Shown piece after piece: positions 10,739 to 48,365 of a DNA stretch of 64,000 nucleotides. Source of the stretch: an uncultured Bacilli bacterium (GTDB lineage Bacteria > Bacillota_I > Bacilli_A > RF39 > UBA660); the NCBI GenBank assembly GCA_944358525.1, contig CALVRI010000001.1:10652-74651 (forward strand), in the 5' to 3' direction. The notes beneath the pieces are model-generated. The model was not told the origin of the DNA, ran no database searches, and saw nothing but the letters and a program-made list of their open reading frames with translations. Every line of letters starts with the position of its first letter. The first letter of the stretch is position 1. Position numbers and translations under genes: made by a program.

Positions 10739-11500
10739 TTATCTATATAAGTTTATAATTGTGTTAAGATTTATTTGTAATAATAAAAGTAATGCCCCTC
10801 CTGCAGCTAAGAATGGGCCAAATGGGAGAACATGGTCTTTTTTTGTACATAAAATTAATACGGCGATTGGTAAGCCAATTAGTGATCCAACAAATATTGA
10901 TAAAATAGCAATCGGATAAGTTAATACCATGCCAAAGATGAATAATAATTTTATATCGCCACCACCCATAGATTCTTTTTTGAAAAGAAAATCACCGAAT
11001 TTTTTGATTAAATACATGGTAATGAAAGCTAAAATACCGTTTAATAACGAATATAAAGCTGTTTCTAGTCCATTTATACATAATATTTCGATAAATAAAA
11101 TTATACTAAATATAATTAAAACTTCATCTGGTATTATTAAATAATGATAATCGCTTACAACAATTATAATCATCATTGAAATAAAGGTTAAAGCAATAAT
11201 TAGATTTTGGGTTAGTCCAAAAGATAGGTAGCATAAAACAAACAAAACCCCGGTTAATGTTTCAAAGATTGGATAAAATAAAGATATTTTTTGATGACAG
11301 TGTTTGCATTTGCCACCTTGAAAAACATATGACAAAACTGGTATTAATTCAAAGAATGTTAATTTATGATTACAGTTTGTACAATGACTTGGTGGGAAGA
11401 TAATTGATTCACCTTTGGGTAATCTATATCCTACAACATTGTAAAAGGAACCAAAGATGGTTCCTATTATGAATAAAAATATACAAATTGCGACTTCCAT
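10739..11500 (-). CDS. pilD: prepilin peptidase (A24 family, PilD/ComC type)
   Basis: Two CxxC pairs (CTNCNHKL, CKHCHQKI) of the N-terminal zinc domain plus multi-TM peptidase core with GGGDIKLL; ORF extends to 11575, but ATG at 11500 has an AGGTG RBS directly after the pilC stop. Confidence 0.8.
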   Translation of the reverse strand: MEVAICIFLFIIGTIFGSFYNVVGYRLPKGESIIFPPSHCTNCNHKLTFFELIPVLSYVFQGGKCKHCHQKISLFYPIFETLTGVLFVLCYLSFGLTQNLIIALTFISMMIIIVVSDYHYLIIPDEVLIIFSIILFIEILCINGLETALYSLLNGILAFITMYLIKKFGDFLFKKESMGGGDIKLLFIFGMVLTYPIAILSIFVGSLIGLPIAVLILCTKKDHVLPFGPFLAAGGALLLLLQINLNTIINLYR

Positions 11501-11510
11501 AATATCACCT

Positions 11511-13259
11511 TTATGCTTGAATTTGACTATACATTGAGAACATTGGAACAACGATTGATAATACAATAATTCCAACCATTACGGTTAATAGTATTATAAG
11601 GGCCGGCTCAACAAATGTTTTAATACGTGTTACTGAGTTTTTGTGCAAATCTTGATAGTATAATGATATTTTGTGCATCATTTCTGGTAATTGACCAGTT
11701 CTTTCACCAGTAACAATCATTTCGTATGCTGGGATTGGAAAGGCCCATTGATCTTTAAAAGCAGAAGATATTGATTTTCCTTGAGCAATATTATCTATTG
11801 CATCATATATTAATTCTCTATATATTTCGTTATTTGTGACTTTATTTAATATTTCCATACTATCAGTAATAAATACGTTATGTGAAAGTAAGGAAGCAAA
11901 AGTTTTGGTAAAGGTTGTTACTTCTTTATAAATAATAACATCGCCAAATACTGGTAAGTGCATTAGTAATCTTTGTGTCCCTTTTCTAAAAACTTTAACA
12001 TTTTTATATAGATAAATACAAATTATTAATATTACAACTATGCTTACACCAATATAAATGATGTATTTTTGTAAAAATTCACTGAGTGCTAATACAGCAA
12101 GGGTAATTCCTGGTATTGTAGCATTATCCATTGTTTCATAAATTTCGATAAATTTTGGAACAACATATAACATGATGAAGGTCCCAACTCCAATGGCAAT
12201 TACAAATATGATAGCAGGATACATCATAGCTGTAATCATTGCTTTTCTAGTTTCTTCTATTTCGGTATAATATTCTTCCATATCATCTAATATTTCTGGT
12301 AATTCTCCTGTCATTTCAGCTGTTTTAACCATGTTAATTAATAAATTTGGAAAGGCATTTTCTTGTTTTGCCATAGCTTCACTGAAACTTCTTCCTGTTG
12401 TTAAATCATAGTGTAAAGTAGATAAAATTCGTTTGTATTTTTTATTTTTAAATTGTTTTCCCAATATTTTTATTGCATCAGCAAGAGGTATTCCAACTTT
12501 TAGATAAGTTGATACTTGGGCTAAAAAGAATATTAAATCACTTGTTTTGAATTTGTCGTGTGAACCACTAACATTTCCATACATGATATTAATCCATCTG
12601 TTTGTCCTAATGCTATAGACTTTATATCCTTGTGATTTTAAAAATGAGTGTACTTCAACTAATGAATAAGCTGCAAAGTAGCCTTTGACAACTTGTCCTT
12701 CAAGGTTTCGGGCAATATATTCATAAGTCATTTTTTCTTTAGTTTTTTCTGCCTCTGGTCCTTCATAATTAATTGACATTTCTTCAGTATCTTGATATTT
12801 ATCTTTAACTTGTCCCCCAAGGCCTAATTTTGTATCAAATAAGTTTTTAATTTTTTCTGAAAAAGATAATACTTTATTCCCTACTTTATCTAAATTTTCA
12901 CCAGCAGTTTTATCTTCTAATTTAGAACTATCTTGAATATAATCGTTTAAACTTTTTTGAACCTTTTTCTCTCTTAATTGTTGTTGTAATTGTCTTACTC
13001 TTTCTTCTCTTTCTTCGTTTTTTTCTTTTTCTCTTTGGTGTTCTGCTAGTAACATGTCTGTTTTTTTATAACTGTTGTTTGTTTGCTTAGCTTCAATGGT
13101 TACTTTTGGCATAGATTTTCCACCAGTAAATAATCTAACCAACATGGTTGGAAAAGCTAAGATACCTAAGAAAACATGTTTTACAAAACTTACTATTGCT
13201 TTTAAAATGGCTAAAAGGCCATGATAAACATATACAAACGGTGATAATAAAACTTTCAT
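11511..13259 (-). CDS. pilC: type IV pilus / T2SS platform protein (GspF/PilC family) with ~200-aa N-terminal TM + coiled-coil extension
   Basis: Two T2SSF repeats (…LSTLHYDLTTGRSFSEAMAKQENAFPNLLINMVKTAEMTGELPEIL… and …HLPVFGDVIIYKEVTTFTKTFASLLSHNV…); N-terminal 50 aa hydrophobic then KE-rich segment absent from canonical PilC. Confidence 0.8.
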   Translation of the reverse strand: MKVLLSPFVYVYHGLLAILKAIVSFVKHVFLGILAFPTMLVRLFTGGKSMPKVTIEAKQTNNSYKKTDMLLAEHQREKEKNEEREERVRQLQQQLREKKVQKSLNDYIQDSSKLEDKTAGENLDKVGNKVLSFSEKIKNLFDTKLGLGGQVKDKYQDTEEMSINYEGPEAEKTKEKMTYEYIARNLEGQVVKGYFAAYSLVEVHSFLKSQGYKVYSIRTNRWINIMYGNVSGSHDKFKTSDLIFFLAQVSTYLKVGIPLADAIKILGKQFKNKKYKRILSTLHYDLTTGRSFSEAMAKQENAFPNLLINMVKTAEMTGELPEILDDMEEYYTEIEETRKAMITAMMYPAIIFVIAIGVGTFIMLYVVPKFIEIYETMDNATIPGITLAVLALSEFLQKYIIYIGVSIVVILIICIYLYKNVKVFRKGTQRLLMHLPVFGDVIIYKEVTTFTKTFASLLSHNVFITDSMEILNKVTNNEIYRELIYDAIDNIAQGKSISSAFKDQWAFPIPAYEMIVTGERTGQLPEMMHKISLYYQDLHKNSVTRIKTFVEPALIILLTVMVGIIVLSIVVPMFSMYSQIQA

Positions 13260-35479: not shown

Positions 35480-36787
35480 TTAGGCTGTATGTGTTTCATT
35501 ATATTTATTTATATAATTTTCTTCAAATGAAATTAAATCATTTGGGCTCATAAACAATAATACTGAGTTTTCATAATCTAATAATTTATCTATTTCTTGT
35601 TCTGTGATGTGTTCAGCATTTGGAATAGCTTTTATAATATCATTTATATCTATTTCGTGCTCATCCGTTTCTCTAGCAGCATATATATCCATGATATAAG
35701 CTTTATCGACAGTTTTTAATATTTCAATATATTCATCTTTAAAAGCTTTGGTTCTAGAATATGTGTGTGGTCCCCAAATAACCACTAATTTTTTGTCAGG
35801 ATATTTTTGTTTAGCTGATTTAATTGTACATTTAAGTTCTGTTGGATGATGAGCATAATCATCTATTACGACATTTGTTCCAACAATTGTTTCATTAAAT
35901 CTTCTTCTAGCTGCATGAAATTCTTTTAAGATTTTTGAAACTTCTTTGGAATCAAACCTTTCGTAATAACAAAGACTTATAACAGCTAAAGCATCTAAAA
36001 GCATGTGTTTTCCATAAAGTGGTAAATCAAAATGTCCATAGTAGTTATCTTCGACAAAAACATCAAAGGTTACACCGTTTTCGGTATATTCTACATCTTT
36101 GGCAATTATATCATTGTCATCATCTAAACCATAGTAAAATATTGGCTTATTTACTTCTAGACTATGGGTATATCTATCATCACCACAGGCAATAACCATC
36201 TTTTCAGCGTTGTTAGCATATTCGGTAAATGCATCAATTACATCATCGATATCTTTGAAATAATCAACATGATCTAATTCAATATTTGTTATTATGGCAT
36301 AGTAAGGTGAATACTCTAAGAAATGTCTTTTATATTCACAAGCTTCTAATACAAAATATTTGTTTTCTTTACTTGCAATACCAGTACCATCACCAATTAA
36401 GCAGTTCGCCCCTTTAATGGCATTTAAAACTTGATAAGCCATGGTGGAAGTTGTGGTTTTACCATGACATCCAGCAACTGTTATGGTCATGAACATTTTA
36501 GTTAATTTAGCTATCATTTCTTCATAAGTATAAATTTTTAAATCTAATTCGTTTGCTTTAAGTAATTCTGGGTGGTCATCTTTAATTACATTACCTCTAA
36601 TAATAACCATATCTTTGGCAATGTTTTTTTCATCATATGGTAATATTTCAATATTTCTTTCATTTAAACCTTTTTCGGTAAAGAAATGCCTTTCAATGTC
36701 ACTTCCCTTAACTTCGTAGCCTAAGTCATGTAAGAAACATGCGAGTGCACTCATACCAGTTCCTTTTATTCCAATAAAATAATACAT
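35480..36787 (-). CDS. murC: UDP-N-acetylmuramate--L-alanine ligase
   Basis: N-terminal FIGIKGTGMSALA, Mur ligase central GCHGKTTT P-loop and C-terminal domain. Confidence 0.9.
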   Translation of the reverse strand: MYYFIGIKGTGMSALACFLHDLGYEVKGSDIERHFFTEKGLNERNIEILPYDEKNIAKDMVIIRGNVIKDDHPELLKANELDLKIYTYEEMIAKLTKMFMTITVAGCHGKTTTSTMAYQVLNAIKGANCLIGDGTGIASKENKYFVLEACEYKRHFLEYSPYYAIITNIELDHVDYFKDIDDVIDAFTEYANNAEKMVIACGDDRYTHSLEVNKPIFYYGLDDDNDIIAKDVEYTENGVTFDVFVEDNYYGHFDLPLYGKHMLLDALAVISLCYYERFDSKEVSKILKEFHAARRRFNETIVGTNVVIDDYAHHPTELKCTIKSAKQKYPDKKLVVIWGPHTYSRTKAFKDEYIEILKTVDKAYIMDIYAARETDEHEIDINDIIKAIPNAEHITEQEIDKLLDYENSVLLFMSPNDLISFEENYINKYNETHTA

Positions 36788-36798
36788 AGATGTTCCTC

Positions 36799-37500
36799 CT
36801 AACTAATGAATTCAATCAAATATGGTCCTAATATTAGAACTAAGATTAATGGAACGATGAACAAAACAGAAATGATACTTACTTTATTTGGTATTTTATT
36901 TATTTGTTCTTTGGTAGTCATTAATTCTTTTTGTCTTAAGAAGTCTACTTCATTATATAATGTTTCTAAAATACTATTACCAAATCTATTTGTTTGAATT
37001 ATATTCAATATTATGTTACTGATTATATCTGATGATATATTTTCTCTTAAATCACTTAATGCTTCAATTAACGATTTACCAAATTTCATATCATATAGTG
37101 CCCCTTCAAATAATTGTGAAATTTCTGAATCAACATTATCACATGTAACAATTAAAGCATTTTCTAGATTTCTTCCTGATTCTAAGGTTAAAGTTAATAT
37201 TTCAAAGAAAAATAATGCCTGATGTTCTAATCTTCGGTTTCGAATGTTTATTTTTTTAGTGATATTTAAATAGTAAAATAAATAATAACATCCAATTGCA
37301 ACAAATGGTGCATATATATACCCTGAATCAGTGATTAAAATACATAATATAAATGCAAAAATAGTAGTTATTAATCTATATGTACAAAAGGTGGTAACGG
37401 TATATTTTGTGTCTGAACCTAGACATCTCAATTTATAATCAATTTCATCTAATTCTTTTGAATTATATATTCTTTTAATGAATTTGGTTAGACTCTGCAT
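36799..37500 (-). CDS. Tad-like pilus assembly membrane protein (TadC-like, T2SSF domain)
   Basis: Multi-TM with a cytoplasmic helical domain between TMs characteristic of GspF/TadB/TadC; 1-nt overlap with upstream TadB-like gene. Confidence 0.6.
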   Translation of the reverse strand: MQSLTKFIKRIYNSKELDEIDYKLRCLGSDTKYTVTTFCTYRLITTIFAFILCILITDSGYIYAPFVAIGCYYLFYYLNITKKINIRNRRLEHQALFFFEILTLTLESGRNLENALIVTCDNVDSEISQLFEGALYDMKFGKSLIEALSDLRENISSDIISNIILNIIQTNRFGNSILETLYNEVDFLRQKELMTTKEQINKIPNKVSIISVLFIVPLILVLILGPYLIEFIS

Positions 37501-38993
37501 TAAATCACCACCTTCATTATTTTACGAACTACTACCACAAAAATTATATAGTAAATTATCATAAATAGCAAGAGTATTCGCCCAATATCTGTTGTGATAA
37601 ACGGTAAAAAATATCCCGGATTTATTAAACTGATTACTAAAATGAAGAAAAATGGTATTGCTAGAAGAATATAAATAATGATTCGGCTACCACTAGTCAA
37701 GCTTTTTAATTCTAATCTAAGTTTACGTTTGTCAAATAAACTTCTTTCTATTGTCGAAAACACTTTAATGATGTCGCCACCGGTTTTGTTTAAAATGGTT
37801 AGTGATGCGGTTAAATAATTTGCTTCTTCTAATTCCACTCTTTTGGCGAATCTTTTGAAGACATCTTCAATGTCTAAACCATACTGTAATTCTAAATTCA
37901 TTCGTTTAAATTCATTGCCGATAACCCCATTTACTTCTGAGCCGACAATTTCAATTGCCTGAGTAATACTTCTACCAGATTTAAAGGAATTATTCATAAT
38001 AGTTATAGCAGCAACAAAATCATTTTCTATAGTCCATCTAAATACTTTGTATCTAGCAAATAAATAGATATCTAGTACGAAGAAACCTAAGATAAAGACT
38101 CCTAATGTTTCTAAACTACCTAATAATTTAAACTGAAATGCTTTTATAATAATAGCTAAAACAGTAAAAGCACAGGCAATGATTATTTTGCCAGAGAGTA
38201 TATCATAACCATTTTTATGAATACCACTAACTGATGTATATTTTTCTAGTTTTTTAGCATATTTAGTGGCAATAACTGATTTTTTTAATTTGCTGGTGAA
38301 TAAATTTAAGAAACTGCTATAAATTCTTCTTAACTTTTCTGATGTAGTTACTATATCATCTTTTAGTGGTTTAATTATATATGGATCTAGTCTCTCTTCT
38401 AGTTTAACTAATTTGTACATTTTTACTATTCTAATTATTAATAAGAATATAACTATAAAACAAATAAATTGAATAATATAAATTGTTATATTATGAGGGA
38501 CAACATTTATATTAGCACTTTCAGTAGCTATATTTCCAGCCTCATCCATAACACTACATGTATAAGTATAATTACCGGTCTTATTTAAGGTTAACTCATC
38601 TATATTGGCTATAATTTTGTCATTTAAAGTGCCACTATAATTATCGTTTGCTGTACATGTAATTAAATCTTTATTATTTGTTGGATTAATTTTAAGATTT
38701 TTATTTGATATGTTTATTTTAGGGGCTTCTTTATCTATAATGTATTCGCCACTATTTATAGTATCAGTTAATCCATTATTTAAATTAGCCTCAACAACTA
38801 TTTGATATTTTCCTGTTTCATTTAAAACTATATTAACGGCATTGCTGTTATAAATGTCCACTGTTTTTATAGGAACATTATCTTTATATATTTGATATGT
38901 ATAGGATGTGACATTATTAGATGGTGAAAAAACGATAGTAATATCTTTGTTTGTTGGTTTATCAATACTTTCTATATCGAAATTTCCATTCAT
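37500..38993 (-). CDS. TadB-like platform protein fused to a ~165-aa N-terminal Ig-like (DUF5011-like) domain
   Basis: C-terminal 330 aa has TadB/T2SSF architecture; N-terminal region lacks signal peptide, contains ANDNYSGTLNDKI (DUF5011-like DxxDGxIT motif) and is followed by a TM with positive-inside flank suggesting N-out topology. Confidence 0.6.
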   Translation of the reverse strand: MNGNFDIESIDKPTNKDITIVFSPSNNVTSYTYQIYKDNVPIKTVDIYNSNAVNIVLNETGKYQIVVEANLNNGLTDTINSGEYIIDKEAPKINISNKNLKINPTNNKDLITCTANDNYSGTLNDKIIANIDELTLNKTGNYTYTCSVMDEAGNIATESANINVVPHNITIYIIQFICFIVIFLLIIRIVKMYKLVKLEERLDPYIIKPLKDDIVTTSEKLRRIYSSFLNLFTSKLKKSVIATKYAKKLEKYTSVSGIHKNGYDILSGKIIIACAFTVLAIIIKAFQFKLLGSLETLGVFILGFFVLDIYLFARYKVFRWTIENDFVAAITIMNNSFKSGRSITQAIEIVGSEVNGVIGNEFKRMNLELQYGLDIEDVFKRFAKRVELEEANYLTASLTILNKTGGDIIKVFSTIERSLFDKRKLRLELKSLTSGSRIIIYILLAIPFFFILVISLINPGYFLPFITTDIGRILLLFMIIYYIIFVVVVRKIMKVVI

Positions 38994-39008
38994 CTTTTGT
39001 CACCTCCT

Positions 39009-40337
39009 TTACTCTCCAAAAATATCTTTTAAATCATCAATACCTTTAGCTTTAATAATGTTATATACTTTTGGAATATATTTGTGGAGTAAAAATTCTC
39101 CATCAACATCTCCGTTTGCTAAAACACCAGTTTGTCTGAATTTAAATATTTCTTTTTGGATAATTTCTCCGTTTTCAATACCAATTATTTCATTAATACT
39201 GCTTACCCTTCTTCTTCCATCGGATAATCTTTGAACTTGAACAACTATCTGAATAGCACTTTCAATATATTCTCTAATGGCCGTTACAGGTATTTCCACC
39301 CCATTCATTAAAACCATTGTCTCTAATCTATTTAAAGCATCGGCTGGACCATTTGCGTGCATAGTAGTCATACTTCCTTCGTGTCCAGTATTCATAGCTT
39401 GAAGCATATCGAATGCTTCTTTTCCTCTAACTTCTCCAACAATTATTCTATCAGGTCTCATTCTTAAGGAATTTATTACTAAATCTCTAATAGTAACTGC
39501 CCCTTCACCTTCATAGTTAGTGGTTCTAGTTTCTAAAGATATAACGTGTTCTTGCTTTAATTTTAATTCAGCTGCATCCTCTATAGTAATTATTCTGTCA
39601 TTTGGATTACAAAATGATGATAAGACATTTAGTAAAGTGGTTTTACCGGCACCGGTACCACCAACAACTAAAATATTTAGTTTTGCATGAACACATGCTT
39701 CTAGAAATCTTGCCATATAAGGTGTTAAGGTTCCTGTTCTAAGCAAGTCTTCAATGTTAGCTAGTTCGCTTTTAAACTTTCTAATAGTTACAACTGGACC
39801 ATTTAATGATAAAGGCGGTAAGATTGCATTTAATCTTGAACCATCATCTAGTCTAGCATCAACCATTGGGTGTGCAATATCAATTGTTTTACCGATTGGC
39901 TGAATTAATCTTTGAACAACTCTAACAATATGATCGTTATTGATAAAACTTATACTATCATCTTTGATTACTTTACCATCTAATTCAATGTAAATTTCAT
40001 TTGGAGAATTAACCATGATTTCAGTTATTTCTTTATCCCTTAAAAGTTCAGTTAATGGTCCATAACCATTTACTTCATTATCGATAAGGTTATAAATATA
40101 ACTTAATTCTTCATTGGTTAAGTCATATCCTTCGACTGATTTATCGATTTCATCTTTGACATAATCTTTCATGTTTTCTCTCGTTTTGTCTTTGTTATCG
40201 ATAAGATTTTGAATTATTTTATTTCTTAGTTCGTCTAATAAAACTTTATTGGGAAACTCATCATAGTCATCTATTTCTTGAGGAAGTTTTTGTTCTAAAG
40301 TGGTGGCGAACTCATCCATAAATTTTTTTGTTTCCAT
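39009..40337 (-). CDS. CpaF/TadA-family pilus assembly ATPase
   Basis: Walker A VGGTGAGKTT, Asp box, Walker B IITIEDAAEL, His box MNTGHEGSMTTMHA typical of the VirB11/CpaF clade. Confidence 0.85.
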   Translation of the reverse strand: METKKFMDEFATTLEQKLPQEIDDYDEFPNKVLLDELRNKIIQNLIDNKDKTRENMKDYVKDEIDKSVEGYDLTNEELSYIYNLIDNEVNGYGPLTELLRDKEITEIMVNSPNEIYIELDGKVIKDDSISFINNDHIVRVVQRLIQPIGKTIDIAHPMVDARLDDGSRLNAILPPLSLNGPVVTIRKFKSELANIEDLLRTGTLTPYMARFLEACVHAKLNILVVGGTGAGKTTLLNVLSSFCNPNDRIITIEDAAELKLKQEHVISLETRTTNYEGEGAVTIRDLVINSLRMRPDRIIVGEVRGKEAFDMLQAMNTGHEGSMTTMHANGPADALNRLETMVLMNGVEIPVTAIREYIESAIQIVVQVQRLSDGRRRVSSINEIIGIENGEIIQKEIFKFRQTGVLANGDVDGEFLLHKYIPKVYNIIKAKGIDDLKDIFGE

Positions 40338-40349
40338 GGTTTCCCTCCT

Positions 40350-41090
40350 TTAATTTAAAATTTTATCTAGTAATTCTGTGAGTACTAAAGTGGTTTTATC
40401 TTTTTGGCTTCCTTTTTCCAAAGTAATTATTTTACCATCCATTATTATTTTTGACATATTTTTAACATATGAGCTACTTGGTAAAATATAGTCGATGTTT
40501 CTATCTAAAAAACTGTTTATTTCATATAAATTCAAATGATTTCTACTCAAAGCTTCATTTAATATGACATAATAGTTTTTTAAATTCATATCTTTATATA
40601 TTGAAATCATTGTTTTCATGTTTTTTAAATCCATTAAATCACTTGTAATAACATATATAATACTATTACTATTATCGAAAGTAATTAGATTTATGTCATC
40701 GATGATATGATTGGTATCTATTAAAATTACATCATATTGGTATTTTAGTTTTTTTAATATTAAATCAATATAATAGGTACTTATTTTTCCGACACTTCTC
40801 GGATCTTTAGGAGCGGCTAAGACATCAATATAATCATTGTATTTTGTAATGTATTCATCTATTTCTTTTAAACCATGATTCATGTAATCGTTAACTAAGG
40901 TATATATATCTTTTTTTGGTTTTAGGTTTAATAAGGCAGATATGACACCGGAGTGCAAATCCATATCAACTAAAATTGTTTTTAATTTTTTATTTGATAA
41001 TATGCCGGCTAAAGATAAGGTAGTAGTGCTTTTTCCAGTTCCTCCTTTAGCTGATGTGACAGTAATTACTTTAGCTTGTTTTATGGCCAT
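40350..41090 (-). CDS. CpaE/TadZ-like ParA/MinD-family ATPase (no N-terminal receiver-like domain)
   Basis: Deviant Walker A SAKGGTGKSTTT and ParA fold; position between TadE-like genes and cpaF. Confidence 0.7.
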   Translation of the reverse strand: MAIKQAKVITVTSAKGGTGKSTTTLSLAGILSNKKLKTILVDMDLHSGVISALLNLKPKKDIYTLVNDYMNHGLKEIDEYITKYNDYIDVLAAPKDPRSVGKISTYYIDLILKKLKYQYDVILIDTNHIIDDINLITFDNSNSIIYVITSDLMDLKNMKTMISIYKDMNLKNYYVILNEALSRNHLNLYEINSFLDRNIDYILPSSSYVKNMSKIIMDGKIITLEKGSQKDKTTLVLTELLDKILN

Positions 41091-41101
41091 AACTTATCCC
41101 T

Positions 41102-41467
41102 CTATTCTTTTTGAATTATTATTTTTTCATTTTCTATATAACCATTATAAGTCAAATCAATGTCAAACTTATGGTTAAAATTGAATAAAGCATCATATTT
41201 TTCTTTGACGGTTACTTTAATTACTTTATTTTTTATTTCAACTGTTATGTCACCTTTTATATTTTCTTTTAATAAATCAGTTAAAATAATTTCTAAATTT
41301 TCATTATCTAAATGATTTAAGCCATATTCAATAGTATCTTTTATTTCAGTCTCATATTTGTTTAGGGTTATACTTAAATTTCCAATTTCCCATATCAAAG
41401 CAAATAATATAAATAATATAGGTAAAATTAATATGAATATTACTAATGTTTGACCTTTATTCCCCAT
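41102..41467 (-). CDS. TadE-like pseudopilin (121 aa)
   Basis: Short leader MGNKG|QTLVIFILILPILF then hydrophobic helix (TadE/TadG type; Ile rather than Glu at +5). Confidence 0.55.
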   Translation of the reverse strand: MGNKGQTLVIFILILPILFILFALIWEIGNLSITLNKYETEIKDTIEYGLNHLDNENLEIILTDLLKENIKGDITVEIKNKVIKVTVKEKYDALFNFNHKFDIDLTYNGYIENEKIIIQKE

Positions 41468-41813
41468 TTAATGCCTCATAATTTTCATATATTGTTTTAG
41501 TTGTTTTTATTTCGTAATTTTTACCTAGTATATTTGTTAAACCAGGGGCAGATATTTCAACATTCTTTTTTAAAGTTAAGGTTATCATACCGTTTTTTAT
41601 TTCATCTTCTAAAGTTAAATCTTCATTAGCAAGGTATACCCCTAACTTCTTGGTATCATTACTTTTATACAATTCAGTTACTGTTTCTAAATCTTTGTTT
41701 AAATCATATTTCTTTAAAAAAATATTACCAATATCAATCATTGCCATAGCAATTAATAGTAAAACTGGTAATATCAATATGAATTCCACTAAAGCTTGCC
41801 CCTTCTTATTCAT
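41457..41813 (-). CDS. TadE-like pseudopilin (start probably MNKKG|QALVEF; ORF-finder start 41834)
   Basis: GQALVEFILILPVLLL matches TadE N-terminal motif with Glu at +5; AGGAAAG RBS precedes the second ATG; a TATAAT box lies between the two ATGs. Confidence 0.6.
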   Translation of the reverse strand: MNKKGQALVEFILILPVLLLIAMAMIDIGNIFLKKYDLNKDLETVTELYKSNDTKKLGVYLANEDLTLEDEIKNGMITLTLKKNVEISAPGLTNILGKNYEIKTTKTIYENYEALNGE

Positions 41814-41839
41814 ATTATCACGCTTTCCTATCATAATAA

Positions 41840-41869
41840 ATTATATCAAAAAAAAAGAGTAATAACAAT
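41840..41869 (-). promoter_or_regulatory. candidate internal promoter for the TadE-like genes (-35 TTGTTA / 18 nt / -10 TATAAT)
   Basis: Minus-strand aTTGTTAttactctttttttttgaTATAATttattatg... immediately upstream of TadE-like CDS. Confidence 0.35.
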
Positions 41870-41978
41870 ATGGTTAAGGGAAAATAGTGTAAAATAAGGA
41901 GAAGACATTTTTAAATAAATTGAAGGTTTTCAATTTTTAATGGTGCGGTAAATCAATTTTTTTGCTATGGAAAATGCG

Positions 41979-42004
41979 GTCCACCAAGCTTTGGCTTGGT
42001 GGAC
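41979..42004 (-). terminator. perfect 11-bp hairpin GTCCACCAAGC-tttg-GCTTGGTGGAC, candidate attenuator/terminator between pilus subunit gene and TadE-like genes
   Basis: GC-rich perfect palindrome in an AT-rich spacer; on the minus strand followed by CGCAUUUUCC. Confidence 0.4.
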
Positions 42005-42120
42005 TTATTCTCTATATTTTAAGTATTATTAAATATCTTTTGTGATGTTTCTTTAGAAAAACATATCTATTATATGCACTAAACCCTACACCACCACCTT
42101 TACTATTATTTTTTGAAATG

Positions 42121-42153
42121 TATAATTTGGTATATTTCACACACCAAATTATA
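42121..42153. repeat. perfect 11-bp inverted repeat TATAATTTGGT-(11 nt)-ACCAAATTATA
   Basis: Seen directly in the intergenic region downstream of the 427-aa gene. Confidence 0.5.
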
Positions 42154-42194
42154 CACCATTATATATATTTCATTTTCCCTCGAAATTTGGGGCG

Positions 42195-42224
42195 GTCCCC
42201 GTAAGACTTCGCCTTACAGGGGAC
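42195..42224 (-). other. GC-rich RNA hairpin immediately 3' of the 427-aa subunit gene (GUCCCC-u-GUAAG / CUUAC-GGGGAC, 11 bp with one bulge)
   Basis: Local GC content far above the window average; sits 12 nt after the stop codon and has no U-tract. Confidence 0.45.
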
Positions 42225-42235
42225 ACTTCGTAGCT

Positions 42236-43510
42236 TTATCCCAATTTGAATGCATTTCCTTGACTTCCATCTCCTCCAGTGATTTTAACATTGGAGTTTA
42301 GATATAAGACTGGGCGGACGGCAGCGGAGCTAGTGACGTAAGAGCCATTTCCATTGCCATAAACAGAACCGACCAGACGGGCTGCATAGTTGGAATAACT
42401 GGCATAAGGAGATTGTAACCACTCGGTTATTCCACTATATAAATAATCACTGTTTTTACAACTACTTTTATAATCATAAAGGGCGGTTGATAAACAACTA
42501 CTTCCTGCTGCATATCCATAATCACTTGGATACATTAAACCTATATGTTGGGTTGTACTTGATGGATTTCCACTATATACTTGTGAGCTATCTCTTTCTG
42601 AATTATAGTAACCACTTGCAGTTAAGGTGTTAATATTACTAGAAGTTGATCCTCCTAAATAATAGGTTTCCTCTGATATCATTCCTTTCGATGTAGCTTC
42701 AATACTGTTATAGTATTCTCCATTTAAATATGTTTTTAATGAAGCATTATTCCAATTGTTTGAATTTGATGAATTCCATTTCATATTTCCTAGACTCTCA
42801 TTTCTGATTATTTTTATTTTACCATCTATAACACCTATTATTCTCCATAATTCATTATTAAATGTTACATAGTTATTTGGTGTTGCACCATAGTATCTGA
42901 TATCACCGTGCTCATCAGTGTATAGTTCGTTGGTGTTTGTGGATACCAATTCTGTTATTTTGTCAGTTGCTAATTCACCACTTGGTTCTGGTGGAGTAAC
43001 TCCACCACTTGGTTTTTGTACATAATTCAAGGTAAGTGAAAGTTCACCCGTTAAATTTTCTGGTTGTGAAGTTACATTTGCATAAGATATTTTAACAGTC
43101 ATAGTAGTTTTATCACCAGCTAATAAAGGATCTCCTTCATTAACACCTGATGTTTCAAATATTATTGCAGGATTATTTGAATCTGATTTAGTAATTGAGT
43201 CTAATACTGCATCAATTGTTCCTTTGTTTTCAATAGTAATTTCATATGTCATAGCATCACCTGGAGCATACAAATTAGCTTCCATAGTAGCTGTGGTTGC
43301 TGTGTAAGAAGGCGCTACAGCATTCTCACCAGTTCCAGTTGGTGTTCCTGGAGTAATACCCGTTATTTGAATATCCCAGTTTGAAGTTACAGTAGATGAT
43401 CCTGCAATTTCCAATTGTGTTGAAAAAGCGGCATAACCTATAGTCATACATATTAATATAGCAAGTAAACTACCGATTATTATTGTTCTTTTTTTTCTAT
43501 TTTTATACAT
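42236..43510 (-). CDS. large pilus-associated/surface protein (424-427 aa) with TasA/SipW-cognate-like N-terminal signal and C-terminal domain shared with the 48815..50068 prepilin-like protein
   Basis: N-terminus KKRTIIIGSLLAILICMTIGYAAFSTQLEIAGS resembles the ...G(T)xAxFS(D/T) SipW-cognate signal class; first gene of the Tad-like locus; C-terminal ~230 aa align with the 417-aa protein (NNYxxF..E.WRII ... RPVLYLNSN..TG.G). Confidence 0.5.
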   Translation of the reverse strand: MYKNRKKRTIIIGSLLAILICMTIGYAAFSTQLEIAGSSTVTSNWDIQITGITPGTPTGTGENAVAPSYTATTATMEANLYAPGDAMTYEITIENKGTIDAVLDSITKSDSNNPAIIFETSGVNEGDPLLAGDKTTMTVKISYANVTSQPENLTGELSLTLNYVQKPSGGVTPPEPSGELATDKITELVSTNTNELYTDEHGDIRYYGATPNNYVTFNNELWRIIGVIDGKIKIIRNESLGNMKWNSSNSNNWNNASLKTYLNGEYYNSIEATSKGMISEETYYLGGSTSSNINTLTASGYYNSERDSSQVYSGNPSSTTQHIGLMYPSDYGYAAGSSCLSTALYDYKSSCKNSDYLYSGITEWLQSPYASYSNYAARLVGSVYGNGNGSYVTSSAAVRPVLYLNSNVKITGGDGSQGNAFKLG

Positions 43511-43609
43511 ATATCTCACCCTATTTTAATTATAAGGATTTTTTATTTTATAAACAACGTATTTGTAAGTAAGTGTCAAAATATTTTGTCAATAAATGTA
43601 AAAAAATGC

Positions 43610-46141
43610 TTATTTGTTAGCATTTTGTTTCAATTTATATAAGATATTTAGAGCTTCCATTGGGGTTATCTCTAATGGATCAATTTTTTCTAATTCTTCT
43701 AGTGTCTTGGATTTTTTAGGCATTAATTCATCAATTGGCAAAGCTTCTTGAATTTTAACATCTCTTTTATTTTCTTTATTTTCATAAACTTTTAAAATTT
43801 CAGAGGCTCTTTTGATAACAGAATCTGGTAAATTAGCTAGTTTAGCAACGTGAATACCATAACTTTTATCGACACTACCCTCTTTAATTTTATGTAAGAA
43901 GGTTATTTTTCCATCTTCTTCGTAAGCTGAAACATGAATGTTTTTTAAATGTTTTAGGGTTTTATCTAAATCAGTTAATTCGTGGTAGTGAGTTGAAAAG
44001 AAAGTTTTACCTTTGATATTTTGGTGAATATATTCAATAATACCTTGGGCTAGAGCCATTCCATCAAAGGTGGCAGTACCTCTTCCTAATTCATCAAATA
44101 GAAGTAAACTTTTGTCGGTGGCCTCAGTTATAGCATGAGCAGCTTCGGTCATTTCAACCATAAATGTTGATTCACCACTTACTAGGTCATCAGAAGCACC
44201 AATTCTTGTATAAATTGCATCAAAGATTGGAAGTTTAGCAACTGTTGCTGGTACAAACGAACCAATTTGAGCCATGATTGCTATAATAGCCATTTGTCTC
44301 ATGTATGTCGATTTTCCTGCCATATTTGGTCCGGTTATTAATAGAATATTTGTGTTTTTATCCATGATAATATCATTAGTGACAAATTCACTATTAATAA
44401 CTTTTTCAACAACTGGATGGCGAGATTCTTTAATATATATTTCGTTTTCTGTTATTTCTGGTCTTACATAATTATTAGTTTCAGCAATGGTTGCGAAAGA
44501 TTGTAAGACATCTATTTCGCTAATTATTTTAGCTGTTTTTTGAAGCTTTGGAATATAGGTTTTAACTTCATCTCTAATGTTACAAAATAAGTTATATTCT
44601 AATTCGATAATTTTTTCTTCAGCATTTAATATTAATGCTTCTTTTTCCTTTAATATTGGGCTTATATATCTTTCACAATTGGCTAGAGTTTGCTTTCTTT
44701 GATATCCCCATTCATCTTTAACTAAGTTAGTATTTCCTTTACTGATTTCGATATAATAACCAAATACTCTATTATAACCAACTTTTAGATTTTTAATACC
44801 TGTCTTTTCTCTTTCATCATGTTCAAATTTAGCGACAAAGTCTTTACCACCTTTTCTTAAATTCTTAAGTTCATCTAGTTCTTCATTATATCCTTCTTTA
44901 ATTAAATATCCTTCTTTGGTAGTTATAGGTGGGTTTTCATAAATACTTTTTTCTAATAAGTTATATAAATCAGAAAAATCGGTTAGTTTTTTATGATAGT
45001 TTATTTTTTTTAATATTTCAGATATTTGAGGTAAGACTTTTAGTGATGATTTTAACTGAAGTAAATCTTTACCGTTAGCATTTCCAAAGGCTATTTTTCC
45101 ACTTAATCTTTCTAGGTCATAAACTTCAGTTAAATATTTTTCTAAATCACTTTTATAAATAAATTCTTTAAGCAAAGTATCTACAACATTATATCTTTTT
45201 TCTATTTCATTTTTATCTACTAAAGGATTTAATAAATAATTTTTTAAAAGTCTAGCTCCCATAGCTGTTTTTGTTTTATCTAAAAGCCAAATTAAGGAAT
45301 AGTTTCTTTGTTTTAATCTTAATGTTTCAATTAGCTCAAGATTTCTTTTAGTATGAACATCCATTTTCATGTGATCTTTTGTTTCTCTTATTTGTATTTT
45401 TTGGAGATGTGATAAGTCTCTTTTTTGGTTATGAATAATATAAGCAAGTAAATGTTTTACTGAGTGAATATATCTTTGATCAATAATATCCTCATAAATG
45501 TATGGGTATTCACCTGATAATTCATCGGTTATAGTGAGTGTTAAATGGAATTGATTTTTTAAAATAGAATATATGTCTTTATCGGTTTTACTATCTAATA
45601 TAACTTCTTTAACTCCTAAGTTAATTATTTCTGAAACAACTTTAGTAGGATTGTGTTCTAATAGAAAAGAGTATATTTCACCGGTTGATACATCAGCATA
45701 ACTGATAGCATACCCGTGTTTAAAATCAGTAATAGATGCAATAAAGTTAAAATCTTCGGCTTTTAAGGTATCTGTATCCATGATTGTTCCCGAACTTATA
45801 ATTTGAATAATACCTCGTTTAACAATTCCTTTGGCATTTTTTGGATCTTCTAGTTGCTCGACAATACCTATTTTATGACCGTTTTCTATTAGTTTATCAA
45901 TGTAAGTACTGGCAGCATGATAAGGAATTCCACACATTGGAATTCTCTCTTCTAACCCCGCTGATTTTCCGGTTAAAGTAAGCTCTAGTTCATGAGATAC
46001 TTTGATGGCATCATCAAAAAACATTTCGTAAAAATCACCCAATCTAAAAAATATGATTAGGTCTTCATTTTCATTTTTAATTTCTAAGTACTGCCTCATC
46101 ATTGGAGTTACTTTTTCTATATCAACATCTTTTCTTTCCAC
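43610..46141 (-). CDS. mutS: DNA mismatch repair protein MutS
   Basis: 843 aa; N-terminal TPMMRQYLEIK mismatch-binding domain, Walker A GPNMAGKST, C-terminal HTH-like dimerisation region. Confidence 0.93.
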   Translation of the reverse strand: MERKDVDIEKVTPMMRQYLEIKNENEDLIIFFRLGDFYEMFFDDAIKVSHELELTLTGKSAGLEERIPMCGIPYHAASTYIDKLIENGHKIGIVEQLEDPKNAKGIVKRGIIQIISSGTIMDTDTLKAEDFNFIASITDFKHGYAISYADVSTGEIYSFLLEHNPTKVVSEIINLGVKEVILDSKTDKDIYSILKNQFHLTLTITDELSGEYPYIYEDIIDQRYIHSVKHLLAYIIHNQKRDLSHLQKIQIRETKDHMKMDVHTKRNLELIETLRLKQRNYSLIWLLDKTKTAMGARLLKNYLLNPLVDKNEIEKRYNVVDTLLKEFIYKSDLEKYLTEVYDLERLSGKIAFGNANGKDLLQLKSSLKVLPQISEILKKINYHKKLTDFSDLYNLLEKSIYENPPITTKEGYLIKEGYNEELDELKNLRKGGKDFVAKFEHDEREKTGIKNLKVGYNRVFGYYIEISKGNTNLVKDEWGYQRKQTLANCERYISPILKEKEALILNAEEKIIELEYNLFCNIRDEVKTYIPKLQKTAKIISEIDVLQSFATIAETNNYVRPEITENEIYIKESRHPVVEKVINSEFVTNDIIMDKNTNILLITGPNMAGKSTYMRQMAIIAIMAQIGSFVPATVAKLPIFDAIYTRIGASDDLVSGESTFMVEMTEAAHAITEATDKSLLLFDELGRGTATFDGMALAQGIIEYIHQNIKGKTFFSTHYHELTDLDKTLKHLKNIHVSAYEEDGKITFLHKIKEGSVDKSYGIHVAKLANLPDSVIKRASEILKVYENKENKRDVKIQEALPIDELMPKKSKTLEELEKIDPLEITPMEALNILYKLKQNANK

Positions 46142-47372: not shown

Positions 47373-48365
47373 TTGATAACAGGTGAAATTATGAGGAAAA
47401 TGACTAGTGTTTTTATTATGATTATCTTATTATTTATCGGCTATGAAATTTTAACCGAATCTGAAAGTATTTTAAATTCAGTTGACTTTTCACTCAATAT
47501 TTTTAAAAACAATATTTTTCCTTCTTTATTTCCATTTTTCGTGCTATCAAATATTTTGATTAAATGTGGACTTCCTGAATTTATGGGAAATTTATTCAAA
47601 GGTGTTATGAATAAAGTTTTTAAAATTAAGGGAGTATGTGCTTTTATCTTTTTCATGAGTATTATATCAGGAAATCCGGCGAATGCAAAATACACGAGAG
47701 AACTTTACAAGGATGGTAAAATTAATAAATACGAGGCAACAAAAATTTTATGTTTTACCTGTTTTTCTAATCCTTTGTTTATTTTAGGAACTGTTTCAAT
47801 ACTTTTTTTAAATAATAAAGAGGCAGGATTACTTATTTTAATCTGTCATTATTTAGGCAATTTATTTATAGGTTTGGGTATGAGAAATTATCATCCAAGT
47901 AAAAAGGAAAATGATAAAAGTAGTTTAAAGAGGGCGATAGATGAGTTGCATAAAAAAAGAATTAGTAATACTGGCAGTTTTGGTGAGGTAATTACTAATT
48001 CTTTGATTAGTAGTATTAATACATTACTTTTAATATTGGGAGTTATTACGACATGTTTGGTGCTTACAACTATTATCGATAATAATCTAAATTTAGACAG
48101 TGTTTTAGGTAGTGTCTTAAATGGTTTTATCGAAATGACTCAGGGACTAAAATATATAAGCTTAGAAGCTATTCCTTTAAAATTAAAATGTGTTTTGACA
48201 GTTATGATTTTATCCTTTGGTGGTCTTTCTGTACATATGCAGATTATGAGTATACTGAGTGATACAGATATTAAATATTTACCATTTTTATGTGCAAGAA
48301 TATGTCATGCAGTATTATCTTCTTTACTTATATATGTTTTATTTGATTTTTGGATTAGTTTATGA
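47373..48365 (+). CDS. YlbJ-like integral membrane protein (nucleoside-recognition/Gate domain family)
   Basis: Multi-TM protein adjacent and divergent to ylbL-like gene, as in the Bacillus ylbJ-ylbL neighbourhood; true start may be the downstream ATG (MRKMTS...). Confidence 0.55.
   Translation: MITGEIMRKMTSVFIMIILLFIGYEILTESESILNSVDFSLNIFKNNIFPSLFPFFVLSNILIKCGLPEFMGNLFKGVMNKVFKIKGVCAFIFFMSIISGNPANAKYTRELYKDGKINKYEATKILCFTCFSNPLFILGTVSILFLNNKEAGLLILICHYLGNLFIGLGMRNYHPSKKENDKSSLKRAIDELHKKRISNTGSFGEVITNSLISSINTLLLILGVITTCLVLTTIIDNNLNLDSVLGSVLNGFIEMTQGLKYISLEAIPLKLKCVLTVMILSFGGLSVHMQIMSILSDTDIKYLPFLCARICHAVLSSLLIYVLFDFWISL

Follow-up and report, generated by a model that had tools for sequence, protein, structure and literature searches.

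A gene for a probable TasN–DUF6273 surface protein beside a tad operon without a local flp in an uncultured Bacilli bacterium

The region at positions 36799–43519 of the 64-kb stretch of DNA analysed here (the window) probably comprises two independent units, a gene for a large surface protein and a tad operon with a promoter of its own. The seven minus-strand ORFs of the block have the coordinates that a sequence-only reading had assigned to them, and ORF prediction and Pfam agree with the gene content proposed there: a 427-aa ORF (42236..43519), which carries a TasN module and a DUF6273 domain, and genes for two TadE-like proteins, ParA, CpaF, TadB and TadC. TasN is a name coined here for an N-terminal module that combines a TasA/BsaA-like signal with an Ig-like domain. 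The tadE1 gene (41457..41813), the start of which was corrected to 41813, encodes a 118-aa rather than a 125-aa prepilin-like protein with the N-terminus MNKKG/QALVEF and Glu at +5; the exact 118-aa sequence recurs across 38 assembly blocks, and the 125-aa ORF form scored 36.1 bits with PF07811 (TadE cut-off 22.9 bits). The product of tadE2 (TadF-like; 41102..41467; 121 aa, MGNKG/QTLVIF) is sub-threshold for PF07811 (15.2 bits, E 0.024), yet its identity is backed by the G/QTLVIF N-terminus and by conserved synteny; the +5 Glu is absent from it and from every orthologue in a comparison of N-termini. A ParA/MinD-type ATPase in the TadZ/CpaE position (40350..41090; 246 aa; PF01656, PF10609 and PF13614, with a weak TIGR03815 match) and a CpaF/TadA secretion ATPase (39009..40337; 442 aa; PF00437 (T2SSE) 202.8 bits; TIGR03819 E 8e-99) are followed by two platform proteins with a single T2SSF domain (PF00482) each, one TadB-like (37500..38993; 497 aa; 58.3 bits) and one TadC-like (36799..37500; 233 aa; 54.9 bits). 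The TadB-like protein begins with an Ig-like extension of ~180 aa (weak Big_3_3 and Big_13 matches), which among related loci is confined to L001–L030. Across 61 related loci synteny is kept and CpaF is 60–94% identical.

The large gene had been taken to come first in the transcription block, a view contradicted by the 400-nt spacer that separates it from tadE1. The spacer contains three minus-strand hairpins (42224–42195, 42157–42117 and 42005–41978; MFE −106 kcal/mol, z = −7.95), and the highest-scoring minus-strand sigma-70-like site lies just 5' of tadE1 at 41868–41840 (TTGTTA, 17 nt, TATAAT, with a TG extended −10). The hairpins gave no match in an Rfam search, are 99–100% conserved in conspecific contigs and are absent from all other relatives; they probably serve the upstream gene as terminators or as structures in its 3'-UTR. 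An equivalent of the predicted promoter, TGnTATAAT, is found in L001, L081 and L161, and the tad operon keeps its own promoter in the relatives compared, including those without an upstream gene. Homology with L001–L006 restarts at 41869/41870 whether or not the relative has an upstream gene, and comparison with relatives marks 43015–41870 as species-specific. The upstream gene itself is variable. Three relatives in which CpaF is 91–92% identical (L003, L004 and L006) have mutS and then tadE1 directly, with no TasN gene upstream or elsewhere in the fetched 10-kb flanks, the corresponding gene of L001 encodes a 172-aa TasN protein without DUF6273, and in contigs with identical CpaF (present in 47 assembly blocks) the upstream product ranges from 294 to 468 aa.

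Neither the ORF list, nor a motif search through every stop-to-stop segment, nor an HMM trained on 25 related Flp sequences revealed an Flp ORF in the spacer, the leader or the whole window, and the worry that a canonical Flp ORF had been overlooked is thus not borne out in the 64 kb scanned. Related Tad loci carry flp in 25 of 61 cases, directly upstream of tadE1 in 24 of these; in the exception, L042, a 1,074-aa gene is inserted between the two. Sister lineages have an ordinary flp-tadE-tadE-parA-cpaF-tadB-tadC operon, none of 15 members of the source clade has flp within 10 kb of the operon, and from the CpaF tree flp looks to have been ancestral and then lost from the locus in the source clade, a lineage-specific absence. 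Purifying selection has continued to act on the tad genes since the loss, dN/dS in the Flp-less clade being 0.03–0.28 over all of them, 0.14–0.23 for tadE1 and 0.09–0.28 for tadE2. The window also lacks TadV, and an A24 search returned, as the sequence-only reading had proposed, a single prepilin peptidase, of PilD type (10739..11575, minus strand; PF06750 (A24_N_bact) 117 bits, PF01478 (Peptidase_A24) 51 bits), ~25 kb from the tad operon. Since all 61 related Tad loci, the 25 with flp included, lack an A24 peptidase in the surrounding 10 kb, and since Bifidobacterium either has no tadV or invariably keeps it away from the cluster (PMC13091076), a TadV outside the tad locus is normal. The description of the locus as atypical therefore fails for the missing TadV.

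Our working explanation is that tadE1-tadE2-parA-cpaF-tadB-tadC would be transcribed from 41868–41840 to give a Tad (type IVc) machine, and that TadE1 (KG/QALVEF) and TadE2 (KG/QTLVIF) would be cleaved in trans, the PilD-type enzyme being the most plausible peptidase and a candidate for the type IV pilins too. In the absence of Flp, TadE1 is the candidate main polymerising subunit and TadE2 a candidate minor pilin for the tip or for initiation; the filament would be mainly TadE1, capped by TadE2, unless flp lies elsewhere in the genome. That proviso amounts to a different reading of the operon, a canonical Tad pilus with a distant flp and with TadE1 and TadE2 as minor pseudopilins, which we hold to be a serious if tentative possibility and which is compatible with our explanation of the 427-aa protein. 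The purifying selection on the tad genes favours it, as do the ancestry and abundance of Flp in the lineage (25 loci; 3,599 Flp-like proteins in the database, some named 'Flp family type IVb pilin [Bacilli bacterium]') and the separation of flp from tadE1 in L042. In addition, the scan covered 64 kb of a genome estimated at ~1.3 Mb, from a species whose longest contig on record is 95.7 kb. Against it stand the lack of flp within 10 kb in the clade and in the window, and the position of flp immediately upstream of tadE1 in all but one of the loci that have it.

The operon resembles the Gram-positive Tad/Flp (type IVc) systems of, for example, Bifidobacterium breve and Bulleidia extructa in its CpaF/TadA, separate TadB and TadC, ParA-type TadZ/CpaE-like ATPase, two TadE/TadF-like pseudopilins, G/xxxxEF-type leader and lack of outer-membrane components, and it shares with Bifidobacterium a peptidase encoded away from the cluster (PMC13091076). 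It differs in the Ig-like extension of TadB and in the absence from the locus of the flp that sister lineages have; in Bulleidia, unlike here, tadV and a pair of pilin genes open the operon (PMC12786226). A Tad-like cluster of TANB77 (PMC11680825) likewise comes from an uncultured gut Firmicute with a reduced genome and has CpaF, TadB/TadC and a ParA-type protein with no recognisable Flp; however, lineage and gene order are different, TadB and TadC are fused there and CpaB is present. Its non-canonical 'pilin-like' neighbours are single-transmembrane proteins of 143–237 aa with promoters of their own (PMC11680825).

The product of the 427-aa ORF joins TasN and DUF6273 in a recent chimera; both are families that these gut Bacilli with small genomes possess in multiple copies. 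Its start is probably the ATG at 43510, which gives 424 aa; conspecific gene calls are 424–425 aa long, and the N-terminus of P0037 is MYKNRKK. Residues 1–30 (43430..43519) form a predicted SipW-type signal peptide with a positive n-region, a hydrophobic h-region and a (V/I)(G/A)YA↓AF site, cleavage being predicted after Ala30, and residues 27–48 are the best-conserved segment in an alignment of the family. The TasN module proper (residues 31–170; 43010..43429; 247 bits with the TasN HMM) consists of a conserved N-terminal strand segment, AFSTQLEIAGSSTVTSNW, which is disordered in the AlphaFold2 (AF2) monomer model, and an Ig-like β-sandwich of eight strands with a PGD...N.G..DA.L motif. The model (pLDDT 83.9) has a helix at residues 8–32, an unstructured stretch at 33–49 and then the sandwich, a layout that agrees with BsaA as described in PMC11580942. 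Fold searches with the TasN module gave generic Ig-like matches only; TasA is missing among the top fold matches, and a Sulfolobus AAP filament ranked 13th in Foldseek (E 0.015). A Pro/Gly linker leads to the DUF6273 domain (residues 192–427; 42239..42946; PF19789 36 bits, cut-off 23.5). The C-terminal half is 65–86% identical to multi-copy paralogues of ~310 aa with a different N-terminus, and the DUF6273 domain is 32% identical to the C-terminus of a pilin-like 417-aa protein at 48815–50068. The only significant PDB match of this half, which rests on a low-confidence model, is the N-terminal DUF6273 domain of a Thomasclavelia ramosa IgA peptidase (9qa6, E 7.7e-4). DUF6273 is described as C-type-lectin-like (PMC10743442, PMC12402451), and the domain shares with 9qa6 (PMC12402451) and with the phage DGR targets called 'tentaclins' (PMC10743442) an above-threshold PF19789 match and the character of a surface-exposed putative binding module. 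It differs from both in being fused to TasN, or at 48815–50068 to a pilin-like N-terminus, and unlike the DGR 'tentaclins' it has no reverse transcriptase or template repeat in the window.

TasN is probably a SipW-class family. It heads at least 7,316 protein clusters (counted as representatives), the module starting at residue 1 in proteins of 160–2,800 aa. Among the 16 free-standing TasN loci that were informative, 14 carry a SipW-type peptidase 0.85–2.1 kb downstream; the two of these peptidases that were tested, from L119 and L128, score 94–100 bits with TIGR02228 (cut-off 51.85), and in the three loci whose gene order was examined, L119, L128 and L131, a DUF5305 gene follows the peptidase. 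Of 25 members, 13 match camelysin/M73 at E < 0.1 (best 1.9e-6) and six give a faint TIGR04090 (BsaA) match; TIGR04089 is also faint in family members, and the weak Pfam matches of TasN are to M73, HYDIN-Ig, DUF11 and CARDB. The large protein itself has no match to TIGR04088 and falls below threshold for PF12389, so that its place in the TasA family is tentative; of the models which the sequence-only reading named for a check, T2SSF, CpaF and, in one of the two TadE-like proteins, TadE were recovered and TIGR04088 was not. Compared with the SipW-dependent proteins TasA (B. subtilis tapA-sipW-tasA), CalY/camelysin and BsaA/BsaB (C. perfringens sipW-bsa operon), TasN proteins share a signal ending in aromatic-Ala↓Ala-Phe-Ser/Asn, a post-cleavage segment disordered in the monomer model ahead of an Ig-like β-rich domain with the PGD...N.G motif, tandem paralogue arrays adjoining an archaeal/SipW-type signal peptidase, and weak PF12389 and TIGR04090 matches. 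They differ in that curated thresholds are unmet by the large protein and TasA is outside its top fold matches, in that the SipW-type peptidase of relatives is fused to a polytopic membrane domain of ~240 aa and paired with DUF5305, in that TasN is mostly the N-terminal head of large multidomain proteins, and in the lack of sipW here: as had been noted for the locus, no SipW-like gene is present, and there is none anywhere in the window. The claim of a SipW-cognate, TasA-like signal stands, GYA↓AFST paralleling TWA↓AFND of TasA; because TasN adjoins SipW-type peptidases and rarely Tad genes, the companion claim of a Tad pilin does not.

A functional link between TasN and Tad is a minority possibility. 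In its most developed form, which we consider unlikely, the Flp-less Tad machine would build a TadE pseudopilus for the SipW-processed TasN proteins of the upstream slot, either pushing them out in the manner of a type II secretion piston, here in a Gram-positive, or providing the platform on which they are anchored, the 45-kDa TasN–DUF6273 protein being one such cargo. TasN lies directly 5' of tadE1 on the same strand in the window and in L001, L009 and L085, just past murC on the same strand as Tad in L008 and L012, and in same-strand arrays of two to four genes upstream of tadE in L044, L048, L081 and L161. At least three or four distinct arrangements thus place it beside Tad, none of them in a locus that has flp (0/25 flp-bearing against 7/36 flp-less loci). 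The Tad-adjoining arrays, moreover, have no SipW gene within 10 kb, and other adhesin genes fill the same slot in relatives. A precedent exists in C. perfringens, where efficient export of SipW-operon proteins depends on type IV pilus genes: secretion of BsaC requires PilA3, PilB2, PilC1, PilD and PilMNO, and export of BsaA oligomers is lowered in several type IV pilus mutants (PMC11580942). In both cases a type IV filament machine co-occurs with SipW-processed TasA-like proteins in a Gram-positive organism, but the link in C. perfringens (PMC11580942) concerns a type IVa set and is experimental and partial, whereas the present one concerns a Tad-type machine and is suggested only by occasional gene adjacency. 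Against the link, of the 76 TasN loci taken from metagenomes 74 have no Tad or type IV pilus genes nearby (one of the others adjoins Tad genes and one pilC/pilD), and some adjacency is expected by chance because the family is very large and multi-copy. In the CpaF tree the adjacency is contributed by two Flp-less clades, while TasN is missing from the neighbourhood in at least five further lineages without Flp; L003, L004 and L006 retain the operon with no TasN in their 10-kb flanks, and the operon always has its own promoter.

The proposal of the sequence-only reading, that the Tad machine polymerises the 427-aa protein as its lead or major subunit, is very improbable. The gene is on the same strand, upstream of tadE1 in a locus without Flp, and the AF2 helix followed by an Ig-like domain is loosely like archaeal type IV pilins. 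However, the N-terminus lacks a prepilin leader, with neither Gly at −1 nor Glu at +5, its conserved motif follows the hydrophobic/transmembrane segment instead of preceding it, the hairpins and conserved promoter intervene, the closest relatives carry the gene in variable form or not at all, and TasN members associate with SipW, just one of the 76 loci adjoining Tad. Least credible is a decaying remnant left by the loss of flp, for although the locus has lost flp and TadE2 scores under the Pfam threshold, all six ORFs are intact clade-wide, with the low dN/dS given above and a CpaF identical in 47 blocks; neither frameshifts nor a dN/dS close to 1 were observed.

We favour two separate units, in which the large protein would be exported by Sec, cut by a SipW-type peptidase encoded elsewhere in the genome and displayed as an adhesin; like TasA and BsaA, it may enter fibres, here of TasN, by donor-strand exchange. 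The upstream slot is occupied in L042 and L060 by large adhesin-like fusions with a pilin-like N-terminus and in L058 and L059 by DUF6273 proteins, and the presence of such large adhesin-like genes in relatives hints that the position upstream of tadE1 is a functional adhesin slot.

The minus-strand block flanked upstream by mutS (43610–46141) and downstream by murC (35480–36787) comprises seven ORFs. The first in transcription order, the 427-aa ORF (42236–43519), is separated by a 400-nt spacer (41835–42235) from tadE1 (125 aa, 41457–41834; PF07811 TadE, 36.1 bits against a cut-off of 22.9; leader KG/QALVEF). There follow tadE2 (121 aa, 41102–41467; leader KG/QTLVIF), which scores a sub-threshold 15.2 bits on PF07811 and is syntenic in 61 loci, a ParA/MinD-type ATPase (246 aa, 40350–41090; PF01656, PF10609, PF13614), a CpaF/TadA-type ATPase (442 aa, 39009–40337; PF00437, 202.8 bits), a TadB-like protein (497 aa, 37500–38993; one T2SSF domain, PF00482, 58.3 bits) and a TadC-like protein (233 aa, 36799–37500; one T2SSF domain, PF00482, 54.9 bits). 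The operon at 36799–41834 encodes three hallmarks of a Tad system, namely a CpaF/TadA-type secretion ATPase, two separate single-T2SSF platform proteins as judged by Pfam, and TadE/TadF pseudopilins with a prepilin leader. Assignment at subfamily level is looser: the 442-aa ATPase matched TIGR03819 at E 8e-99 with 331 bits, below the equivalog cut-off of 373, and the 246-aa ATPase is clearly of the ParA/MinD superfamily, with only 30.7 bits on the CpaE-specific TIGR03815 (cut-off 154). ORF coordinates together with the Pfam and NCBIfam assignments bear out the gene content proposed for the block by the sequence-only reading. The closest relatives of this DNA, which has a G+C content of ~28%, are MAGs labelled Candidatus Coprosoma, Firmicutes CAG:822 or 'uncultured Bacilli', with chromosomes of 1.2–1.3 Mb; the lineage is of the RF39 type. 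The TadB-like protein carries an N-terminal Ig-like extension of ~180 aa (residues 1–180), without a signal peptide before the first transmembrane segment, that is present in the related loci L001–L030 and missing from L031–L061.

The same reading had made the 427-aa gene the first gene of the operon. That boundary was misread, in view of the spacer hairpins, a predicted tadE1 promoter and the variability of the upstream gene among relatives. The spacer forms three strong hairpins (−106 kcal/mol, z = −7.95). Directly 5' of tadE1, at 41868–41840, is the highest-scoring promoter-like sequence of the coding strand (TTGTTA, 17 nt, TATAAT; the −10 is extended by TG), and promoters of the same extended −10 type precede tadE in L001, L081 and L161. 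DNA homology with the closest relatives restarts exactly at 41869/41870, and does so independently of the upstream gene, since L001 and L002 have one and L003, L004 and L006 run from mutS to tadE1. The 1.1 kb from 43015 to 41870, which covers the DUF6273 part of the gene and most of the spacer, occurs in this species alone and is 99–100% conserved among conspecific contigs. An identical CpaF is present in at least 47 assemblies; on contigs that carry it the upstream gene encodes 294, 324, 425, 434 or 468 aa, and in L001, the CpaF of which is 94% identical, a 172-aa gene at the same place matches residues 1–168 only of the 427-aa protein. These first ~170 residues are a free-standing family, here termed TasN, with a TasA/BsaA-like signal and an Ig-like domain. 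In gene calls as in the exact-protein record, tadE1 begins at MNKKG (118 aa) and the large gene at MYKNRKK (424–425 aa). On this comparative evidence we place the 427-aa gene outside the tad operon. The spacer (41835–42235), the hairpins of which matched no Rfam family at either gathering or E-value cut-offs, may act as a terminator, encode a small RNA or be left over from recombination; it is 99–100% conserved in conspecific contigs and missing from all other relatives, and resembles neither other loci nor the IS200-like ends beside a DUF6273 paralogue. Co-transcription with tadE was also considered for the TasN arrays of L161 and L081 and set aside, because the short gap there contains a promoter with an extended −10 as well as an AT-rich hairpin with a T-run, so that co-transcription is not required.

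Nor does the 427-aa protein resemble a pilus subunit at its N-terminus, MYKNRKKRT-IIIGSLLAILICMTIG-YAAFST. Gly is missing ahead of the hydrophobic segment and Glu from position +5, the conserved motif comes after that segment, and neither N_methyl nor TadE was matched in Pfam. The proposal that it is the lead subunit in a pilus architecture not yet described is therefore not upheld, the protein having no prepilin leader and its gene lying, as we read it, outside the operon. TasN proteins begin with a charged n-region and a hydrophobic segment, followed by their most conserved stretch, (V/I)(G/A)YAAF(S/Q)TxLxIxGTxxIxSxW, and then an eight-strand Ig-like sandwich with a PGD...N.G..DA.L motif (AlphaFold2 model, pLDDT 83.9). 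SipW cleaves TasA between TWA and AFND, a site paralleled in TasN by aromatic-Ala/Ala-Phe-Ser. In the monomer model the most conserved segment, residues 27–48, is unstructured, and the unstructured stretch after the cleavage site matches the reported donor strand of BsaA and TasA (PMC11580942, PMC9674648). The presence of unstructured yet conserved residues here suggests that TasN might polymerise by donor-strand exchange. In many TasN of alignment A1 (the L044, L048 and L128–L131 type) the presumed donor strand reads L-x-I-N-G-T, the Asn of which recalls that of the N-E-K isopeptide triad reported for BsaA; the 427-aa protein has Ala where many TasN have this Asn (EIAGSS).

A relationship to TasA at the level of profile and fold was rejected, the matches being confined to the motif and to generic Ig-like folds. 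PF12389 (TasA/camelysin) gave 12.9–16.3 bits for the 427-aa protein against a cut-off of 22.5, fold searches retrieved only generic Ig-like sandwiches and no TasA-like fold, and the Pfam matches of the 427-aa protein besides DUF6273 were weak Ig-like and camelysin signals. Of the families named by the sequence-only reading, CpaF, TadE and T2SSF were matched by the proteins of the block, but TIGR04088 had no match in the 427-aa protein at E ≤ 1; faint matches to TIGR04090 and TIGR04089 were seen in six and two, respectively, of 25 TasN family members.

The comparative context of TasN loci points to the SipW class for TasN, and so for the 427-aa protein. The TasN profile matched 7,316 cluster representatives, nearly always from residue 1 of proteins of 160–2,800 aa. 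In a metagenome scan of 76 TasN loci, free-standing TasN genes often occurred in tandem arrays of two to six, and in 14 of 16 informative loci a polytopic membrane protein of ~385 aa was encoded 0.85–2.1 kb downstream. The C-terminal domain of this protein, in the two tested (L119 and L128), is an archaeal/SipW-type signal peptidase I (TIGR02228, 94–100 bits against a cut-off of 51.85; SipW model, E 1e-21), and a DUF5305 protein comes next in the gene orders looked at (L119, L128 and L131). With the motif on one side and a SipW-type peptidase beside paralogues in 14/16 loci on the other, the earlier call of a SipW-type signal was probably right. No SipW-like peptidase was found in the window by tblastn and motif scans, nor a gene for one in L001–L089 except L061. 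The TasN-SipW operon lies at 9983–13903 in L119, 7890–12932 in L128 and 10001–16356 in L131, occurs also in L124, L139, L140, L143–L146, L150 and L157, and consists of one to six TasN paralogues, the ~385-aa fusion of membrane protein and SipW-type peptidase (TIGR02228) and the DUF5305 protein; no description of this fused arrangement was found in the literature surveyed.

The C-terminal half of the 427-aa protein is a DUF6273 domain. DUF6273 (PF19789) was matched at residues 237–408 with 36 bits against a cut-off of 23.5, and the half has 2,244 homologues, several per genome, most of the best 120 having a precomputed PF19789 annotation. It is 65–86% identical to a multi-copy family of ~310 aa with a different N-terminus. 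With a TasN N-terminus joined to a multi-copy DUF6273 C-terminus, the 427-aa protein is a chimera of recent origin between two families of surface proteins, and most probably an adhesin that SipW processes. DUF6273 in targets of diversity-generating retroelements (DGR) has been described as C-type-lectin-like (PMC10743442), and the only significant PDB fold match, obtained with a low-confidence model (pLDDT 59.8), was to the DUF6273 domain of 9qa6, a Thomasclavelia ramosa IgA peptidase (PMC12402451). A DGR link for the gene was discarded, long near-identical repeats not being found in the window. In L186 (7285–10882) a DUF6273 paralogue of ~293 aa, which appears 5'-truncated, lies beside IS200/IS605-type (Y1) and IS91-type (Y2) transposase and integrase genes, and the conspecific contigs L183–L185 break inside or just after the DUF6273 gene, as a repeated family would predict.

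The same domain recurs within the window, the DUF6273 half being 32% identical over 251 aa (E 2e-26) to the C-terminus of a 417-aa protein with a pilin-like N-terminus (RG/FLLAES; 48815–50068, minus strand). Homologous C-termini on the 417-aa and 427-aa proteins place one binding domain on two export/anchor modules in the same genome. The 417-aa protein is part of a scattered type IVa/Com-like set that also includes a 147-aa pilin with an N_methyl motif (48360–48803, minus), PilB (50175–51527, plus), PilC (11511–13259, minus) and PilD (10739–11575, minus). In other lineages, large adhesin-like genes lie directly 5' of tadE1 in L042 (4856–8080), L060 (6616–8391), L059 (6094–8418) and L058 (60–287), and this looks like a variable adhesin slot; the L042 product (1,074 aa) fuses a type IV pilin N-terminus to BspA-type leucine-rich repeats, that of L060 fuses one to a 591-aa body, and the products in L059 and L058 are DUF6273 proteins. 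Two unrelated features of the window are a ribosomal protein L10 leader (RF00557, 65.9 bits, 28117–28232, minus) 5' of the rplJ-rplL-rpoB-rpoC region, and overlapping small ORFs at 58902–59515 (plus; 110 and 93 aa) judged by eye to be a putative RelB/DinJ-type antitoxin and YafQ/RelE-type toxin.

The absences reported by the sequence-only reading (Flp, TadV and a SipW gene, with a lone PilD-type peptidase) held within the window under ORF, motif and HMM searches. No Flp-like ORF was found in the spacer, the 5' leader or the whole 64 kb with an ORF list down to 20 aa, a G-x4-E-hydrophobic scan of all stop-to-stop segments and an HMM built from 25 related Flp; the only prepilin starts of this form were those of TadE1 and the type IV pilin at 48360–48803. 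Related Tad loci number at least 594, of which 80 were kept in this analysis; tadE1-tadE2-parA-cpaF-tadB-tadC is kept in 61 related loci, usually with murC next. A canonical flp is present in 25 of the 61, all more distant than the window's clade, and in 24 of these 25 it is immediately 5' of tadE1, L042 having the 1,074-aa pilin-like adhesin gene inserted between the two. The products are of 63–82 aa, with G/QALVEY and two conserved C-terminal cysteines, and their database homologues carry PF04964. Flp looks ancestral on the CpaF tree, in which the window sits in a single monophyletic Flp-less clade (L001–L014). Every tad gene is intact in this clade, with dN/dS of 0.03–0.28, which indicates that the Tad system is maintained. 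As for TadV, the sole A24 peptidase of the window is the PilD-type enzyme (10739–11575), adjoining a PilC homologue; the window has no dedicated TadV, and no A24 peptidase was found within 10 kb of any of the 61 related loci, flp-bearing ones included. In Bifidobacterium tadV likewise lies outside the cluster or is missing, and it is not universal in Gram-positive Tad loci (PMC13091076), so that its absence here is ordinary.

TadE1 and Flp have the leader KG/QALVE(F/Y) in common. The Glu at +5 is always present in both, and is missing from TadE2 and every orthologue in L001–L061 (G/Q(T/S)L(V/I)(I/V/A)F); in other type IV filament systems a missing Glu at +5 marks the tip subunit. Our working hypothesis is that TadE1 would build the filament, TadE2 would cap it and the PilD homologue would process the subunits. 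The main alternative, a distal flp elsewhere in the genome, we regard as possible while leaning against it: no Flp major pilin (50–80 aa, G/xxxxEY, PF04964) was found in the flanks of 14 clade relatives, fetched to 10 kb or less where contigs ended. The longest contig recovered by exact-protein look-ups for this species was 95.7 kb.

A functional coupling of TasN to the Tad machine is unlikely in our judgement, and merits discussion because of the neighbourhoods in which TasN occurs. In the window, L001, L009 and L085 a TasN gene precedes tadE1; in L008 and L012 it lies past murC; and in L044, L048, L081 and L161 arrays of two to four such genes stand 5' of tadE. L048 has in addition a 463-aa TasN-DUF6273 gene downstream of its Tad locus. 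The Tad-adjacent arrays have no SipW gene nearby, and the slot 5' of tadE1 is elsewhere occupied by pilin-fused adhesins (L042, L060) or DUF6273 proteins (L058, L059). TasN adjoins Tad in 0/25 flp loci against 7/36 without flp (naive p ~0.02), but this adjacency is contributed by two Flp-less clades alone, and in five or more further Flp-less lineages TasN is missing from the neighbourhood. Moreover, TasN is a very large, multi-copy family, 74 of the 76 TasN loci lie beside neither Tad nor pilC/pilD genes (one adjoins each), and the nearest relatives keep the operon without TasN. On the side of a link, efficient export of sipW-bsa operon proteins in Clostridium perfringens needs type IV pilus genes (PMC11580942). 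One could speculate, at long odds, that the Flp-less Tad of these gut Bacilli is a TadE-only pseudopilus, a Gram-positive T2SS-like exporter or assembly platform for SipW-processed TasN proteins. Such machines would then, just as improbably, have given up making an adhesive Flp pilus, and the exported TasN proteins would be fibre subunits together with TasN-lectin adhesins from the variable slot 5' of tadE1.

Taken as a whole, the sequence-only reading stood in its gene content and absences, and probably in its SipW-type signal, and fell in its operon boundary and lead-subunit role: the apparent exotic pilus is here a Tad operon with an adjoining surface-protein gene. For annotation, a big gene beside a pilus operon should not be called a subunit without comparative evidence. 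Of interest are the conserved Flp-less Tad operon, the large uncurated TasA/BsaA-like module with its SipW-fusion/DUF5305 operon, and the reuse of DUF6273, sequence comparison suggesting that one binding domain has been placed modularly on pilin-like and TasN scaffolds. TasN forms the N-terminus of thousands of surface proteins, and Pfam has no family for it; its core operon, in which a SipW-type peptidase/polytopic membrane fusion accompanies DUF5305, suggests that gut bacteria have a so far unstudied system for fibres or display that resembles TasA/BsaA. Cooperation of Tad and TasN, if real, would tie a type IVc machine to TasA-like matrix proteins and build on the evidence from C. perfringens that export of SipW-operon proteins depends on type IV pili. 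In a prevalent clade of uncultured, small-genome gut Bacilli, a Tad machine is under purifying selection with no flp alongside, which raises the question of what that machine polymerises.
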